Of a DNA stretch of 57,096 bases, positions 6,460 to 40,088 are shown one piece after another (position 1 is the stretch's first letter; each line of letters starts with the position of its first letter). The stretch is taken from positions 1-57,096 of the forward strand of contig JBJEQK010000010.1 of the NCBI GenBank assembly GCA_051881715.1. The letters run 5' to 3'. This DNA comes from Acutalibacteraceae bacterium. Its GTDB lineage: Bacteria > Bacillota > Clostridia > Oscillospirales > Acutalibacteraceae. The notes below the pieces were generated by a model, which was not told the DNA's origin, did not search any database, and worked only from the letters and a program-made list of their open reading frames with translations. The position numbers and the translations under genes were made by a program.

Positions 6460-6513
6460 CTTATGCGCTCTGCGTTGCTACAATGTGTATATACTTCACA
6501 AGGAGTTTTATGT

Positions 6514-7032
6514 ATGAAAAAATTGCTATGCTGGATTCTTTCCGTCACTTTTGTTCTCTCTCTTTCCGCCTGCGGTGAAACACAGCCCGCAGTCTCCACA
6601 GACGTCACTGTCGCCGAGGCATCCTTTGACTTCATCGCCACGGACATCGACGGCAATGTCGTTCGGTTCGCCGATTTTCAGGATGCCAAGGTAATCATGA
6701 TCAACTTCTGGGAGCCGTGGTGCAATCCCTGCGTAAGCGAAATGCCTGCCATCGAACAGCTCTACACACAATACAGTTCCGACGGACTGGTCGTCCTCGG
6801 CGTCTTTACATCGACGGGCATGGACGATGACATCTGCGCTGTTCGGGAGGACTGCGGCATTACCTATCCTCTGCTTCGCGGTGAGGACGAAACGCTGCTC
6901 GCTTTGCAAACGGAATATGTTCCGACCACTGTTTTTTTAGACGCAAAGGGAAATATTCTGACGGACGAGCCTATAATCGGTGTGCGGTCGTATGAAGAAT
7001 ATGAAAGTCTTGTCAAGGAGTATCTGCGATGA
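6514..7032 (+). CDS. TlpA/ResA-family thiol-disulfide oxidoreductase lipoprotein
   Basis: MKKLLCWILSVTFVLSLSACG lipobox, and thioredoxin-fold active site FWEPWCNPCVSEMP. AAGGAG RBS before the ATG at 6514. Confidence 0.85.
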   Translation: MKKLLCWILSVTFVLSLSACGETQPAVSTDVTVAEASFDFIATDIDGNVVRFADFQDAKVIMINFWEPWCNPCVSEMPAIEQLYTQYSSDGLVVLGVFTSTGMDDDICAVREDCGITYPLLRGEDETLLALQTEYVPTTVFLDAKGNILTDEPIIGVRSYEEYESLVKEYLR

Positions 7033-24193: not shown

Positions 24194-24280
24194 TGGTGCC
24201 GGTGGCGGGGGTCGAACCCGCACGGTATCGCTACCACTGGATTTTGAGTCCAGCACGTCTGCCAATTCCATCACACCGGC
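24194..24280 (-). tRNA. tRNA-Leu (anticodon CAA), type II with long variable arm, CCA encoded
   Basis: Minus strand reads GCCGGTG...CTGGA-CTCAAAA-TCCAG...GCGGGTTCGACCCCCGC-CACCGGC-A-CCA. It has a 7-bp acceptor stem, anticodon loop CUCAAAA, a TTCGA T-loop and a 15-nt variable arm. Confidence 0.9.
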
Positions 24281-25429: not shown

Positions 25430-25481
25430 ACGATCCCCTCCACAAATTTCATCCTATGAAACAGGGCAAAAGGATATGCAA

Positions 25482-25507
25482 AAACGGCACCCAATCAGAT
25501 GCCGTTT
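25482..25507 (-). terminator. distal copy of the duplicated oad-operon terminator hairpin (full U-tract)
   Basis: Minus strand reads AAACGGCAUCUGAUUGGGUGCCGUUU, followed by UUGC. The 9-bp stem is GAAACGGCA/UGCCGUUUC. It is a direct repeat of 25746-25771. Confidence 0.6.
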
Positions 25508-25745
25508 CAGACTGTCGATAAAGGCGCCCGAGCGCATACATGACAGTGCTAAAAAAGCCAGAAGCATCGGCAAAGACATAGGAAACACGAGCAGCGACAC
25601 GGCATCGAACCGTTTCGCTGCTCGTATGCTTGCCGCTTTTTCGGGCTCGGAGTACCCTTGTACGCCTATCGCCCGAAGAAAACGGCATCGGGCATCCTTT
25701 CTCGCCAGCCTGCCAGCTTGTCGAAAATGCTTTTTCGACAAGCTG
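25508..25745 (-). repeat. copy 1 (238 bp) of a structured terminator-associated repeat (MITE-like element or 3'-UTR ncRNA candidate)
   Basis: By eye ~85-90% identical to 39170-39406 and 34501-34704 when reverse-complemented. Sense strand starts CAGCTTGTCGAAAAAGCATTTTCGACAAGCT and ends ...TATCGACAGTCTG. Confidence 0.8.
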
Positions 25746-25771
25746 AAACGGCACCCATGCGGATGCCGTTT
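25746..25771 (-). terminator. proximal copy of the duplicated terminator hairpin, 12 nt after the oadB stop, U-tract truncated to UUU
   Basis: Minus strand reads AAACGGCAUCCGCAUGGGUGCCGUUU, followed directly by CAGC of the repeat. It differs from 25482-25507 only at three loop positions. Confidence 0.6.
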
Positions 25772-34464: not shown

Positions 34465-34500
34465 GCGAACCCGTTTCAAAAACTGCACAGGCATAAAAAA

Positions 34501-34704
34501 CAGACTGGCGAGAAAGGACGCCCGATGCCGTTTTCTTCGGGCGATAGGCGTACAAGGGTACTCCGAGCCCGAAAAAACGGCAAGCATACAAGCAGCGGCA
34601 CGGTTCGACGCCGTGCTGCTGCTTGTGTTTCGTATGGTCTGCCAATGCTTCCGTCTATTCCCTGCACTGTCGTGTATGCGCTCGGGCGCCTTTATCGACA
34701 GTCT
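34501..34704 (+). repeat. copy 2 (204 bp, short variant) of the structured terminator-associated repeat
   Basis: Starts CAGACTGGCGAGAAAGG and ends CGACAGTCT(G). It lacks the 33-nt 5' hairpin module of copies 1 and 3, and is flanked by the 10-bp direct repeat GCATAAAAAA (34491-34500 and 34705-34714). Confidence 0.8.
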
Positions 34705-34706
34705 GC

Positions 34707-34740
34707 ATAAAAAAGGAGCTGTCCCATCGAGGCAGCTCCT
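34707..34740 (-). terminator. intrinsic terminator of the 34755-35651 lipoprotein gene
   Basis: AGGAGCTG/CAGCTCCT stem (34714-34721/34733-34740), followed on the minus strand by UUUUUUAUG. Confidence 0.55.
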
Positions 34741-35858: not shown

Positions 35859-36548
35859 ATGTACAAAGTTCTCGTCTGCGACGACGACGCGGCGATTCTG
35901 GACTCCGTGGAAATTTATCTCAAAGCCGAGGGCTACAGCGTTTTGAAAGCCGGCAACGGGCTGCAGGCCTTGGAGCTGCTGAAAGAAAATGAGATCCACT
36001 GCATGGTGCTGGACATCATGATGCCGCAGATGGACGGTCTGACCGCCATGATGAAAATCCGCAACACGCACAACTTCCCCATCATTCTGCTCTCCGCCAA
36101 AAGCGAGGACACGGACAAAATTGCCGGACTATCCTTCGGCGCAGACGACTATGTCACAAAGCCGTACAATCCTCTGGAGCTGGTGGCGCGGGTGAAGTCC
36201 CAGATTCGACGGTACGTGCGGCTCGGAAGTATGCAGGAAAAGGAAAGCCTGCTGACGACCGGCGGGCTGTCTCTGGACAGAGACACCAAAATCGTCACCG
36301 TGGACGGGGAGCCGGTCAGTCTGACCGCGCGGGAATACGGCATTCTCTGCTTCCTGATGGAAAACATGGGACGTGTCCTTTCCAGCTCGCAGATTTACGA
36401 AGCCGTTTGGAACGAACCATCCTTCCGAACCGAAAAAACCGTCACAGTGCATATCCGCAATATTCGTGAAAAGATCGAAATCAATCCCAAAGACCCGAAA
36501 TACTTAAAGGTGGTGTGGGGCCTTGGCTACAAAGTCGAAAAACTTTAA
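35859..36548 (+). CDS. OmpR-family response regulator
   Basis: Receiver domain (KVLVCDDD, MVLDIMMPQMDG, SAKSE) and winged-helix output (LTAREYGILCFLMEN...YLKVVWGLGYK). ATGs at 35850 or 35853 are alternative starts. Confidence 0.9.
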   Translation: MYKVLVCDDDAAILDSVEIYLKAEGYSVLKAGNGLQALELLKENEIHCMVLDIMMPQMDGLTAMMKIRNTHNFPIILLSAKSEDTDKIAGLSFGADDYVTKPYNPLELVARVKSQIRRYVRLGSMQEKESLLTTGGLSLDRDTKIVTVDGEPVSLTAREYGILCFLMENMGRVLSSSQIYEAVWNEPSFRTEKTVTVHIRNIREKIEINPKDPKYLKVVWGLGYKVEKL

Positions 36549-39132
36549 AGGAATTTTCTTTGTTAAAACACTTTGCGTGATCCTTTCCGCACTGTGCGCA
36601 GGTGTGCTGTCTTTTTTCTTTGTCTATTTCTACGAGAACGAAAGCTATATTACCGACCGCACAAACAGCTGGAACAATCCGCTGCCGTCCTTTACGCAGT
36701 CCGGGCACATGGAGAAACTGCTGGATTCCGATCTGTACTTCGTTTCGCAGATTTTGAAAAACAGCGACATTCAGCAGAAACTCGGCGCTTTGGAAGCGCA
36801 GAAAAGTGAAGTCGTGCAAGTGAATCTGGAGCGTTATCTGGACAACAAAGCGCAGATTATTCACGACGAGCTGTACTATGTGGCAACGAACTATGACGGC
36901 ACAGGGTATGATCTCGACGAATACGCAGAATCCGGCGAGACAACGACCCTCACGACCACAGTTATAGACACGCAGGAAACGGGTGCGGAAATCAAAGAGA
37001 CCGCGACACAGCTGTTCGTGATCGACGAACACGCCCCGTACAACGCCCGCTACTGTCAAAAGCTGCTGAACACCGTGTCCGGCCGTGATTTTTTGAAGTA
37101 CGATTATCTCGTGCGTAAGGAAGCGTTCCAAGAGAAGGAATTTGTCATCAACTTTTATTCCCTTCCCGGAGACTTTTCGCTTCTTGACGGGTACGAAAAC
37201 CGCATTTATCAATACATGGATTACTCGGAAAATGAAGATGCGGCGAAGCGGAGCATTGAGAATTGCTTTGACAGCTTCCTGCAATTTATCCGGGACGAGC
37301 AGAAAAATCAGTACAGTACCGCCGTCGGCACATTGCACAGTGAGCCGTCCAATCTACGGTACCTTACCGTTGCCGAAAACGGAAAAAAATTCACCAATAT
37401 GCCTGCCGAACAGCGGAGTTCCGAAGCGATTCTGTCCCACGAGAATGCACTGATCTGCAAGGACGGAAAGATCACTGCCAAGGGAGCGTTTGATACAGAT
37501 ATGCTGCGAGGCAGTGCAGACCTTCTGTTCCCCGATGGCACCGTATACCTGTACTTGGAGGATACACTGCTGCCGGGCGATAAATACGATTCCGCCGCCG
37601 CATTCTACAACTTGTTCACGCCGTTCACGCCCTTAACGGCACTGCTGCTCTGCATTGCGGCGGTACTGCTGCTTGTGGTCTGCGCTGTATGTCTGCTGGT
37701 TTTGTGCGGGCACAAGTCCGGCACAGAGGGCATTCACCTGTGCTTTACAGACAGGGTTCCTGTTGATCTGCATTTTCTGTTCAGCGGCGGCGCCTGTATT
37801 GCCCTTGCGTGTACTTTCTACTGGATATTTATCCGCATCCTCGAAATGAACTTTTGCTGGGACGGAAACCGCTACTATTACTCCGACTCCGGCGCAAGAA
37901 TCGAAATCAAATACATCGCACTTGGTGCATTGTGCCTGATCGCCGCTGTGTTTACACTCCTTTTGCTGGAGTGGCTCACCTCCATGGTACGTCTGAAAAA
38001 AGCCCACGAATCCTGGCTGCGGCACTGCATCCTTTGGAAAATACCCGTTCTGCTTTGGAAAGGGTGCAAAAAGGTGTTCGCATGGATTCGCCGTGGATGC
38101 AGAAAGCTAAAAAAGGGCATCGTGTTTCTTTTGGGCAAGCCGCAAAAAATACGCTATACTGCCGTGGGCGTGATCCTCGCATTTCTCGGCGCACAGCTGA
38201 TCATTTTTCTGCTGTGCGTGGCCGATGACAGGTTGGAATTGGCGCTGTTCCTGTTCATACTGCTTTGGATCGGTTTCGGCGTACTATGCGTGTGGTACCT
38301 GCGCATGATCGACCGCATCATTGAGGCGTCCTGCGACCGTGCATCCCTGCCTGTCAAGGGCACGGAAACCATGCCCAAACACCTGAAAACGCTGGCAGAG
38401 AATCTGACCGTCACCAGCCATGAACTGGATGTGGCCGTTGCCGACGCCGTGCGCAACGAACGCACCAAGGCGGAGCTGATCACCAACGTTTCCCACGATC
38501 TGAAAACGCCGCTGACCTCCGTGATCTCCTACGTCGATCTGCTGAAAAAATGCGACATTACCGACGAGACCGCCATCGGTTACCTGAATATTTTGGACGA
38601 GAAGTCTGCCAAGCTGAAACGGCTGATCGAGGATCTGATCGAGGCAAGCAAGGTCAACACAGGCAACGTGAAACTGCAAATCATTCCGCTGAACCTCTCC
38701 GAACTGGCCATGCAGGCTGTCGTGGAAGCGACCCCTGACTTTGAAAAGCAGGAGCTGGACATCCGCTTTACCCAGCCGGACGTCTCCCCTGTCGTTTTCG
38801 CCGACGGCACAAAGACCTACCGTGTTTTGGAAAATCTGCTCTCCAACGCCAAAAAATATTCCGCCCGTGGTTCCAGAGTGTATGTGCGCATTGGGGACGA
38901 AGCGGAGTACGGCGTGTTCGAGATCAAGAACGTTTCCCGGGAACCCCTTGACCTGTCCCCGGACGAACTGACGGAACGTTTCGTCCGAGGCGACCGCTCC
39001 CGCAGTGAAGACGGCAACGGATTGGGGTTGTCCATCGCAAAACAACTCTGCACCCTGCAGGGCGGCAGTCTGGACATATCCATTGACGGCGATCTGTTCA
39101 AGGTCACGGTTCGTCTGCCGAAAAATAAATAA
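36523..39132 (+). CDS. sensor histidine kinase with a very large N-terminal extracytoplasmic and multi-TM sensor region
   Basis: H-box VSHDLKTPLTSVISYVDLL, N-box LENLLSNAKKYS, and G-boxes GLGLSIAKQL. About 560 aa precede the H-box. The TTG start at 36523 is uncertain; GTG at 36577 is an alternative. Confidence 0.85.
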   Translation: MATKSKNFKGIFFVKTLCVILSALCAGVLSFFFVYFYENESYITDRTNSWNNPLPSFTQSGHMEKLLDSDLYFVSQILKNSDIQQKLGALEAQKSEVVQVNLERYLDNKAQIIHDELYYVATNYDGTGYDLDEYAESGETTTLTTTVIDTQETGAEIKETATQLFVIDEHAPYNARYCQKLLNTVSGRDFLKYDYLVRKEAFQEKEFVINFYSLPGDFSLLDGYENRIYQYMDYSENEDAAKRSIENCFDSFLQFIRDEQKNQYSTAVGTLHSEPSNLRYLTVAENGKKFTNMPAEQRSSEAILSHENALICKDGKITAKGAFDTDMLRGSADLLFPDGTVYLYLEDTLLPGDKYDSAAAFYNLFTPFTPLTALLLCIAAVLLLVVCAVCLLVLCGHKSGTEGIHLCFTDRVPVDLHFLFSGGACIALACTFYWIFIRILEMNFCWDGNRYYYSDSGARIEIKYIALGALCLIAAVFTLLLLEWLTSMVRLKKAHESWLRHCILWKIPVLLWKGCKKVFAWIRRGCRKLKKGIVFLLGKPQKIRYTAVGVILAFLGAQLIIFLLCVADDRLELALFLFILLWIGFGVLCVWYLRMIDRIIEASCDRASLPVKGTETMPKHLKTLAENLTVTSHELDVAVADAVRNERTKAELITNVSHDLKTPLTSVISYVDLLKKCDITDETAIGYLNILDEKSAKLKRLIEDLIEASKVNTGNVKLQIIPLNLSELAMQAVVEATPDFEKQELDIRFTQPDVSPVVFADGTKTYRVLENLLSNAKKYSARGSRVYVRIGDEAEYGVFEIKNVSREPLDLSPDELTERFVRGDRSRSEDGNGLGLSIAKQLCTLQGGSLDISIDGDLFKVTVRLPKNK

Positions 39133-39139
39133 TGTCAAA

Positions 39140-39169
39140 AGGAGCTGCGCGCATGGCGTCAGCTCCTTT
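39140..39169 (+). terminator. proximal copy of the duplicated HK/HAD terminator hairpin (A-run kept, U-tract cut to UUU)
   Basis: AGGAGCTGCGCGCATGGCGTCAGCTCCTTT, 8 nt after the HK stop, identical to 39407-39436. Confidence 0.6.
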
Positions 39170-39406
39170 CAGCTTGTCGAAAAAGTATTTTCGGCAAGCT
39201 GGCAGACTGGAGAGAAAGGATGTCCGATGCCGTTTTCTTCGGGCGATAGGCGTACAAAGGTACTCCGAGCCCGAAAAAACGGCAAGCATACAAGCAGTGG
39301 CACGGTTCGACGCCGTGCCACTGCTTGTGTATCGTAGGGTCTGCCGATGCTTCCGACTTTTCCTACACTGTCGTGTATGCGCTCGGGCGCCTTTATCAAC
39401 AGTCTG
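39170..39406 (+). repeat. copy 3 (237 bp) of the structured terminator-associated repeat
   Basis: Starts CAGCTTGTCGAAAAAGTATTTTCGGCAAGCT and ends TATCAACAGTCTG. It is bracketed by a perfect 30-bp direct repeat. Confidence 0.8.
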
Positions 39407-39436
39407 AGGAGCTGCGCGCATGGCGTCAGCTCCTTT
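39407..39436. terminator. distal copy of the duplicated terminator hairpin (full T-run); contains the HAD stop codon
   Basis: AGGAGCTGCGCGCATGGCGTCAGCTCCTTT plus TTT. The stop codon of the minus-strand HAD gene (39426-39428) and its last 4 codons lie in the 3' arm and T-run. Confidence 0.6.
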
Positions 39437-40088
39437 TTTCAGTCAATATGTAGTTTTTAAGCGCCTGCACATCCTGTGCGAAACGGGAGGCTCCTGCTTT
39501 TTCCAAAGTGTCCTTGTCTCTGAACCCCCAGAGGACAGATACGGTATCTATGCCGGCGTTCAAGCCGGTCTGCACATCCGTCTCGGAATCGCCGACATAC
39601 AGAACCCTTTGCGGCTTTGTGTGCAACACCTCTGCGATGAAGTGCAGTCCCCTCGGGTCGGGCTTTTTGGGTACATCTTCGGTGGGGCCCGTGGCATAAT
39701 CCAGCCAGTCTCCGAAGTAATGCACACACAGCGGGCGGACTGCGTTGTCCTGCTTGTTGGAGAATACCGCCGTCCGAATCCCTGCCGCCCGTAGTGCTTG
39801 CAGCAGCTCGGAGACTCCCTTGTACGGCGCCGTTTTCACTCGGGAATGGGCAGTGTAGTATGCATCGTAGGTTTTATAAAACCGTGCAAATTCTTCTTCG
39901 TTCACACTCTCGGGCAGCGCACGTTCCAGAAGCTTCACCGCCCCGTTTCCCACAAAGCGCCGTATTTCATCCACCGTTCTTTCAGGATACCCGAACGAAC
40001 GCAGTGCATAGTTTACGCCGTCGGCAATATCCTGCAATGTATTGAGAAGCGTTCCGTCCAGATCAAAAATCACTGCTTCATATTTCAT
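39426..40088 (-). CDS. HAD-superfamily phosphatase (phosphoglycolate phosphatase-like)
   Basis: Motif I AVIFDLDGTLLNT, motif II SNK, and motif IV YVGDSETD. Confidence 0.85.
   Translation of the reverse strand: MKYEAVIFDLDGTLLNTLQDIADGVNYALRSFGYPERTVDEIRRFVGNGAVKLLERALPESVNEEEFARFYKTYDAYYTAHSRVKTAPYKGVSELLQALRAAGIRTAVFSNKQDNAVRPLCVHYFGDWLDYATGPTEDVPKKPDPRGLHFIAEVLHTKPQRVLYVGDSETDVQTGLNAGIDTVSVLWGFRDKDTLEKAGASRFAQDVQALKNYILTEKRS

Follow-up and report, generated by a model that had tools for sequence, protein, structure and literature searches.

How does a transcription terminator come to stand twice, in identical copies, on either side of 237 bp of structured DNA between two convergent genes? 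The question arises in a contig of an Acutalibacteraceae bacterium (JBJEQK010000010.1, positions 1 to 57,096; this whole stretch of 57,096 nucleotides is referred to here as the window), in which an open reading frame (ORF) for a histidine kinase with HisKA and HATPase_c domains (HK, 36523-39132, + strand) converges on an ORF for a HAD hydrolase (39426-40088, - strand). Between the two ORFs the exact 30-bp direct repeat AGGAGCTGCGCGCATGGCGTCAGCTCCTTT occupies 39140-39169 and again 39407-39436, and both copies fold as G+C-rich stem-loops. Chance would produce an exact repeat of this length within 300 bp at a rate of about 4^-30 per position pair, and the repeat is therefore not fortuitous. The intervening 39170-39406 (copy c1) is an insertion into the terminator common to HK and HAD, accompanied by a 30-bp target duplication, and it is one copy of a multi-copy, non-coding family of miniature inverted-repeat transposable elements, or MITEs, in gut Oscillospiraceae. 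The best overall explanation, to which we assign a probability of roughly 0.72, is that the element is a MITE of IS1182 type, inserted by a transposase that attacks an extruded cruciform at its two 5' feet, and that it belongs to a previously undescribed family abundant in Oscillospiraceae and other gut Clostridia.

The insertion can be read directly from the comparison of filled and empty sites. The left target copy (39140-39169) is a terminator stem-loop of the form AGGAGCTG-loop-CAGCTCCTTT that has kept its upstream A-run (CAAAA) and is followed by TTT and then C; the right copy (39407-39436) is the same hairpin followed by TTTTTT, and it holds the stop and last codons of the HAD gene. The preliminary description counted four HAD codons inside it, but only the stop codon, two full codons and part of a third are found there (39426-39436). 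Contigs encoding the closest HAD relatives, retrieved by a search with the HAD protein, supply the empty site: L027 (a Logan assembly) and L028 (from ENA), with a HAD protein 94% identical, and L030, with one 77% identical, carry a single hairpin between HK and HAD. The spacing between the two genes in these three contigs is about 26-40 bp and comprises one hairpin, preceded by an A-run and followed by a T-run, and in L027 and L028 it reads ...taatgtcaaaAGGAGCTGCGCACATGGCGTCAGCTCCTTTTTTcagg..., an AAAA-hairpin-TTTTTT bidirectional terminator. The initial proposals that a perfect 30-bp duplication of a terminator hairpin brackets the 237 bp, that deleting 39170-39436 restores a single terminator, and that relatives might offer empty sites with one hairpin have thus been borne out. 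The filled HAD-hairpin-element junction recurs in an independent short-read assembly (SRR30616851, L036), and for this reason the 39-kb junction is not an assembly artefact; the L036 contig terminates within the element, as expected of a repeat.

The element, which the same early account described from a single copy, is not a one-off: a copy search gave two more copies in the window (three per 57 kb, by BLAST of the element) and many elsewhere. Copy c2, a long form like c1 and 88% identical to it, lies at 25508-25745 on the - strand and is an older insertion. It is flanked by diverged 26-bp terminator hairpins (25746-25771 and 25482-25507) that match at 23 of 26 positions, all three differences falling in the loop. 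The c2 insertion is also present in the metagenome-assembled genome (MAG) SUG1305 (L001, L043), where the loop is TCCGAATGGG in both hairpin copies; in the window the two loops have diverged (TCCGCATGGG and TCTGATTGGG) while the stems are intact, one of the changes amounting to a U-G pair on the transcribed strand. The 39-kb insertion is younger than the one at 25 kb, because its hairpin copies are identical and the element is absent from the relative with 94% HAD identity. Copy c3 (34501-34705, + strand) is a short form, 93% identical to c1 over the common part, which lacks the left-end hairpin (hairpin X, see below) and starts exactly at the inner terminal inverted repeat (TIR). It is placed directly 5' of another terminator hairpin and is flanked by an exact 9-bp duplication, CATAAAAAA, at 34492-34500 and 34706-34714. 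The c3 junction is seen in an independent assembly as well (L037, Logan SRR30616851), and the contig of a relative ends at the c3 insertion site.

Beyond the window, a conserved 23-mer used to scan species-representative genomes gave at least 12 loci, the matches listed all coming from two Oscillospiraceae MAGs (SUG1305 and SUG1318), and a metagenome scan with a 20-mer from the right end gave, among the matches listed, small elements with common ends and different interiors. The metagenome relatives include a 157-bp element from the human gut and a 44-bp element consisting of two TIRs only. A blastn search against phages found three relatives in human faecal 'Bacteriophage sp.' contigs, and one more relative lies in IMG/VR; the blastn search of the element against plasmids returned chance matches only. 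Copy c1 itself shows the characteristic features of a MITE: 237 bp without a transposase gene, TIRs, a target-site duplication (TSD) with an empty site, and dispersed copies. Short-read contigs regularly end inside the element (L036, L037, L003, L005, L010 and L012). A rough ORF-based scan made no orientation bias relative to genes evident.

Several variants were observed in these collections. The 44-bp mini-element, CAGACTGTTGAGAAATGTGCAGATGCGCCTTTATCGACAGTCTG (L013 1919-1962, L014 3790-3833), is made of the left and right TIR only, has no evident target duplication and may be a minimal substrate of the same transposase. A diverged subfamily in SUG1318 (L011 6264-6446, - strand; L009 7259-7423) has kept the left stem-loop and both ends, with the central hairpin swapped for a different one or largely deleted. 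SUG1305 contains a second repeated module, CCGAAAGTTTGGTTTTACAAAGCGAA followed by the hairpin AGCCCTCCCTGCGAGGGAGGG, beside several of the MITE copies (L004 1880-1960, - strand; L008 1120-1180; L001 about 6480-6545), and a solo TIR, CAGACTGTCGAAAAAGT, abuts a hairpin in L004; the module and the solo TIR suggest nested or serial insertions.

One regularity concerns the target. In 11 copies that bear hairpin X and lie on single contigs, the flanks repeat a stem-loop, 17-36 bp long; where the case is clean, the duplicated stretch begins at the stem's 5' foot and ends at the 3' foot. The two flanks match at 30 of 30 positions at c1, 27/27 in L032, 25/25 in L025 and 17/17 in L024, the last an A+T-only palindrome; they match at 29/30 in L009, 24/25 in L006 and 23/26 at c2, and in L026 (about 1783-2016) the flank repeat measures about 35 nt. 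The weakest three, L015 (20/24), L017 (18/22) and L007 (18/22), leave a border with one or two bases unpaired, and at L007 an inverted arrangement of the flanks fits no worse than a direct one. The duplicated targets are mutually unrelated in sequence and several are devoid of a T-run, so that the feature they have in common is the palindrome and not terminator function. Since the duplication coincides with a stem-loop in all 11 flanked copies, its length is set by the structure of the target. The sole duplication around a short form, that of c3, is an ordinary 9 bp. Both duplicated copies remain hairpins over time, as is apparent from the intact stems of c2 despite the drift of its loops and from L026, where the four differences between the hairpin copies make up two compensatory pairs (G-C to A-T in both) and leave the palindromes perfect; this persistence fits either continued use as terminators or palindrome-templated correction.

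A mechanism that would produce this pattern can be outlined on the model of a known insertion sequence (IS). IS1272, of the IS1182 family, enters stem-loops of 21-38 bp, formed by inverted repeats or terminators, whatever their sequence (PMC5678879; PMC4923244). In the model proposed for it, attack at the 3' feet of a cruciform deletes the stem-loop, and attack at the 5' feet would duplicate it whole (PMC5678879). Hairpin targeting and the predicted duplication pathway are thus already in the literature; we found no published description of IS1182-type MITEs and no documented duplications of whole terminators. For the element, the transposase would be provided in trans; it most likely belongs to the IS1182 family, as a relative of the IS1272 enzyme, and would bind the TIRs, pairing the outer left with the right one. 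The target would be recognised by its shape and not by its sequence, as a palindrome extruded as a cruciform or as a hairpin at the replication fork. DDE-type attack at the two 5' feet of the extruded cruciform, followed by gap repair synthesis across the two single-stranded stem-loops, would duplicate the entire hairpin; because repair would copy the whole stem-loop, the duplication would have the length of the stem-loop (17-36 bp, and 30 bp at 39 kb). A fixed active-site geometry would not be able to span staggers of 17-36 bp on B-form DNA, and the foot-to-foot rule would be accounted for because the feet are adjacent in a four-way junction at any stem length. On an ordinary duplex target the same system appears to generate a 9-bp duplication, with one example.

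The resemblance to IS1272 extends to several features. Both choose stem-loop targets, often intrinsic terminators just past genes, without primary-sequence specificity (PMC5678879; PMC4923244), both have TIRs of about 16-17 bp with the tip motif AGNCTG(T/G)(C/G), and a variant with a duplicated left end, IS1272L (PMC5678879), has its counterpart in the duplicated left end of the long form. The differences are equally clear. The element encodes no transposase; the left-end duplication of IS1272L is tandem whereas that of the element is inverted, the TIR and its inverse making a hairpin; and IS1272 and TnSha1 delete or replace the hairpin without duplication, whereas the element duplicates it (PMC5678879; PMC4923244).

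The long form is composed of hairpin X, the inner left TIR, a conserved stem-loop, a central hairpin, and a conserved right end that includes the right TIR. Hairpin X (39170-39201, + strand) consists of the outer left TIR, CAGCTTGTCGAAAAAG (39170-39185), and its own inverted copy (39188-39201), the inverted repeat being 14 nt long and 93% complementary. It is kept in nine long-form copies among 12 aligned, with changes of U-A to U-G only, and the architecture recurs in unrelated relatives (L024, L025, L026, L032 and L044). One base past hairpin X lies the inner left TIR, CAGACTGGAGAGAAAGG (39203-39219, + strand), which is the end used by short-form copies; over 17 nt it is 82% complementary to the right end at 39390-39406, and 15 of the 17 positions pair in the family consensus. 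The right TIR (39390-39406, - strand; reverse complement CAGACTGTTGATAAAGG, given also as CAGACTGTYGATAAAGG) belongs to the 34 nt at the right end that are the most conserved part of the family. Comparison of the outer TIRs of c1, CAGCTTGTCGAAAAAG on the left and the right-end reverse complement CAGACTGTTGATAAAG, gives 12 matches in 16, and the outer left TIR matches the family consensus right end, CAGACTGTCGATAAAG, at 13 of 16. The TIRs noticed at the outset are therefore real, but the figure of 7 matches in 10 then attached to them was too low. The left and right TIRs differ consistently across families, with ...G[G/C]CGAGAAAGG on the left and ...GTCGATAAAGG on the right.

Between the ends the element is dominated by secondary structure, and the 237 bp fold far better than shuffled sequences (z = -12.9 for the + strand, -11.4 for the - strand). 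The central hairpin (39290-39328, + strand) has a perfect stem of 16 bp (16 nt, 100% complementary); in other family members its sequence is replaced while pairing is kept, and several pairs covary in the 12-copy alignment. The conserved subterminal stem-loop (39229-39283, + strand) presents a variable, covarying stem around the loop GAYAGGC-GTAC-AAAG-GTAC-NYYGA. It was aligned from 11 diverse copies, some from families with no stem sequence in common, and stems as dissimilar as CAACTCACACGC/GCGTGTGAGTTG in L017 and CCGCTCC/GGAGCGG in L024 occupy the same position. Compensatory changes affect nine of the 13 pairs, and 92% of the cells of the stem-loop are paired as against 74% in shuffles, none of 500 shuffles reaching the observed value; control structures slid by one to three columns pair at only 29-54%. 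The inner GTAC/GTAC stem covaries as well (GTAT/ATAC in L044 and L045). G-U pairs occur on the + strand only, at pairs 21/38 and 22/37 of the stem-loop and at several positions of the 12-copy alignment. One possibility is that the stem-loop came from the parent IS as a cis-acting site, for instance a transposase leader or binding site; it may alternatively be read as RNA or as single-stranded DNA, and the data do not choose.

A coding function for this region was considered and rejected. An ATG preceded by a Shine-Dalgarno-like AAAGGA lies within the 5' arm of the 39229-39283 stem and opens an ORF of 36-79 aa encoding a basic product that begins MPFSSGDRRT..., represented in the window at 25440-25688 (-) and 34525-34710 (+). 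A protein search baited with it found three tiny hypothetical proteins only, of which one is an annotation in an Oscillospiraceae MAG. Conservation of the reading frame is absent, with breaks in c1, L011 and L024 (in L024 an in-frame stop), and the ORF, like P0121-P0123, is most likely spurious.

The strong fold raises the alternative that the element is primarily a functional structured RNA, such as a small RNA derived from a 3' untranslated region (3' UTR) or a regulatory stem-loop, which has been spread by transposition. Such a module is compatible with an IS1182-type MITE as its vehicle, and it would explain the covariation with G-U pairs on one strand and the proximal hairpins without a full T-run, owing to which flanking transcripts probably traverse the element. 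Several observations speak against it. At gathering threshold the window yields an Rfam match to a tRNA elsewhere only, and 39000-39600 yields nothing relevant even at E <= 10, its best matches being chance hits to miRNA hairpins with E >= 0.25; the early impression that no Rfam family matches the element was correct, and no promoter-like site was found in it. Copies also lie in apparently both orientations relative to neighbouring genes by the rough ORF-based scan (e.g. L007 and L011), and the conserved stem-loop could equally be a remnant of a transposase 5' leader or a binding site. We regard the RNA module as an unlikely primary explanation.

Structure conserved on one strand would also be expected if the element moved as single-stranded DNA or as folded hairpins, in the manner of integron attC sites or of palindrome-associated transposable elements (PATEs) derived from IS200/IS605, with hairpin X and the stem-loop serving as recognition structures. 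The left end is a hairpin and the targets are hairpins, and the internal stem-loop keeps its loop sequence while its stem covaries, with G-U on the + strand only. However, IS200/IS605 elements are not known to have TIRs or target duplications, whereas the element has clear TIRs and TSDs, one of them an exact 9 bp; none of the copies is accompanied by an HUH or integrase gene, and the end motif matches the ends of the DDE-type IS1182 family. Movement of this kind is accordingly a rather improbable alternative.

The terminal sequences are what connects the element to a specific transposase family. Element ends (CAGACTGTCGATAAAGG, CAGGCTGGCGAGAAAGG and TCAGCCTGTCGAAAAAG) carry the tip motif AGNCTG(T/G)(C/G), which is also present in five ISs. 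The first is IS1272 itself (L048, end TCAGGCTGGGACATAAA), whose transposase scores 451.9 bits on the IS1182 model NF033551 (cut-off 270). ISSau3 (L049, end TGAGTCTGGGACATAAA) is annotated IS1182-like, and its transposase is 98.9% identical to that of IS1272; the IS of phiKM1 (L050, end GCAGCCTGTCGGG) scores 342.5 bits on NF033551. For ISKpn6 (L039, ends GGAGCCTGCGCGG and GGAGTCTGCGCGG) the same model is the best match but stays below the cut-off because the sequence is a fragment, and the full gene is annotated IS1182-like in RefSeq. The fifth, in the human-gut contig L051 (end AGGCTGTCTCAAA), was linked to the IS1272 transposase by tblastn only. The element ends share 8 identical nt with IS1272, and 10 nt (CAGCCTGTCG) are identical between the element of L025 and the phiKM1 IS. 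The match is short and supportive of IS1182 membership, which a transposase would be required to settle. ISAs1, for which TSDs of 8-10 bp and 'CAGGG' ends are typical, was considered as mobiliser and rejected: E. coli YhhI is without a detectable TIR, and the ends of an ISAs1-like gut IS are unrelated. The direct repeats of the element family range from 9 to 36 bp; for the IS1182 family, direct repeats of 0-60 bp are reported in the ISfinder family table.

The length of the duplication had at first been likened to the IS1634 group, for which long and variable direct repeats are reported, and a transposase like that of IS1634 or IS4, whose stagger is inherently long and variable, would indeed leave repeats that vary between copies, here from 9 to about 36 bp, the hairpin being incidental. 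The analogy has to be given up. A stagger blind to structure would not yield foot-to-foot boundaries, whereas the duplications coincide with a stem-loop in all 11 flanked copies and have their boundaries at its feet in the clean cases. The TIR tips, moreover, resemble IS1182-family ends, and the transposase of IS1272, which the element matches in ends and behaviour, scores 451.9 bits on the IS1182 model against 21.2 bits on the IS1634 model (NF033559). A stagger of this type is very improbable.

A number of points weigh against the proposal of an IS1182-type MITE that is inserted at cruciform feet. The documented insertions of IS1272 delete the hairpin and do not duplicate it (PMC5678879; PMC4923244), and among the copies examined of ISKpn6, the phiKM1 IS and the L051 IS, none has a duplicated hairpin. 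TIR-pair scans detected no autonomous IS with these ends in the window or in 54 fetched loci, and the link to IS1182 hence rests on an end similarity of about 8-10 nt and on behaviour; four gut contigs that encode IS1182-family transposases do not have the full ends of the element. The parent IS was not found by a scan of viral contigs with the right end either, among the matches listed, and the reach of all such searches is limited by the fact that repeats break MAG contigs. The plasmid pRE25 has no IS1182 copy. The covariation with G-U pairs on the + strand is unexpected for a recognition site in purely double-stranded DNA and hints at an RNA or single-stranded DNA stage, and the 9-bp mode is represented by one copy, c3. 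Finally, about six copies (L001, L004, L008, L011, L044 and arguably L007) have unlike hairpins on their two sides, an arrangement that requires recombination between copies or chimeric assembly. In the case of L001 the matching right half was found on L043, another contig of the same MAG, which identifies a chimeric join, and the remaining copies may be assembly chimeras or inter-copy recombinants.

Unlike flanking hairpins (at L004, L008, L011 and L044), together with loops that often differ between the two copies, might also mean that the hairpin copies arose after insertion, by template switching or palindrome recombination, or that the element carries one hairpin along, but this is hardly credible given that the flanking hairpin sequence changes from site to site, that two perfect copies at the filled site stand against exactly one at the empty site, and that SUG1305 keeps identical loops at c2, so that loop differences are later drift.

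Set against other systems, an IS1182-type MITE that duplicates its target hairpin combines familiar and unusual traits. Like the bacterial MITEs known as Correia elements, RUP, bcr1 and MITEAba12, it is short (44-260 bp), non-coding, multi-copy, intergenic and highly structured, with TIRs and target duplications; unlike typical MITEs, which make a short duplication of fixed length, it duplicates a whole target stem-loop of 17-36 bp, and its left end has the form of a hairpin made from the TIR. Long, variable direct repeats are common to it and to the IS1634 group, but its repeat boundaries follow the stem-loop, and its ends and behaviour point to an IS1182-type system. Spacer integration by Cas1-Cas2, and casposons, likewise involve staggered attack at the borders of an often palindromic repeat, gap repair and duplication of the whole repeat. 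Theirs is another enzyme family, and the element has neither cas genes nor a CRISPR array beside it, uses arbitrary palindromes as targets and has DDE-type TIRs. Group IIC introns, which are large ribozyme retroelements, insert after a hairpin and leave it single, and the element has no Rfam intron match. What they have in common with it is a home beside intrinsic terminator stem-loops (PMC1702495).

At the 39-kb locus the insertion is predicted to alter how both genes end. The HK-proximal hairpin is now followed by UUUC instead of UUUUUU, and the HAD-proximal hairpin by CAGACUGUUGAU. Because the proximal copies have lost most of the T-run, transcription of HK and HAD probably continues for about 270 nt, across the element and up to the distal copy, which would result in overlapping antisense 3' UTRs; a discrete hairpin-bounded 3'-UTR RNA is plausible on the same sequence grounds. 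A pattern scan of the region found no promoter and did not call the duplicated hairpins terminators, as they have longer loops than it allows. Since each flanking gene retains a hairpin at its 3' end, the insertion probably does almost no harm.

A more far-reaching interpretation, which we put forward tentatively and rate as possible, is that of a superfamily of palindrome-homing MITEs in gut Clostridia, mobilised by a transposase that would read shape and act at the 5' feet of cruciforms, with a TSD equal to the whole stem-loop whatever its length, and in which the hairpin left end and the covarying stem-loop would act in cis, as structure-specific signals recognised in RNA or single-stranded DNA form and not as binding sites in normal duplex. 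If true, this would be the insertion mode that was predicted for IS1272 but never documented, and the regeneration of the hairpin on both sides would constitute a built-in safe landing at terminators. The family in any case provides a natural data set, comprising more than ten independent insertions and an empty site, in which the length of the duplication is set by the secondary structure of the target and not by the enzyme. It offers direct genomic evidence for cruciform- or hairpin-directed transposition that complements the hairpin-deleting IS1272, and a defined substrate for finding and testing the structure-specific transposase. In abundant gut Oscillospiraceae the elements remodel the 3' ends of convergent genes and may create long overlapping 3' UTRs. 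On the practical side, the family systematically breaks assemblies and produces chimeric joins in Oscillospiraceae MAGs, and its members are sometimes annotated as hypothetical proteins.

Two minor observations concern the surroundings of the insertions. The tRNA gene at 24197-24280 (-), the only gathering-level Rfam match of the window, is about 1.2 kb away from the MITE copy at 25 kb. The HK protein ends ...LPKNK* in the window (39117-39132), and its homologue in L027 (4690-4720) has 12 extra nt, which form a short tandem repeat (AAGTCAATCGAAAAGTCAAT) directly before the stop codon.

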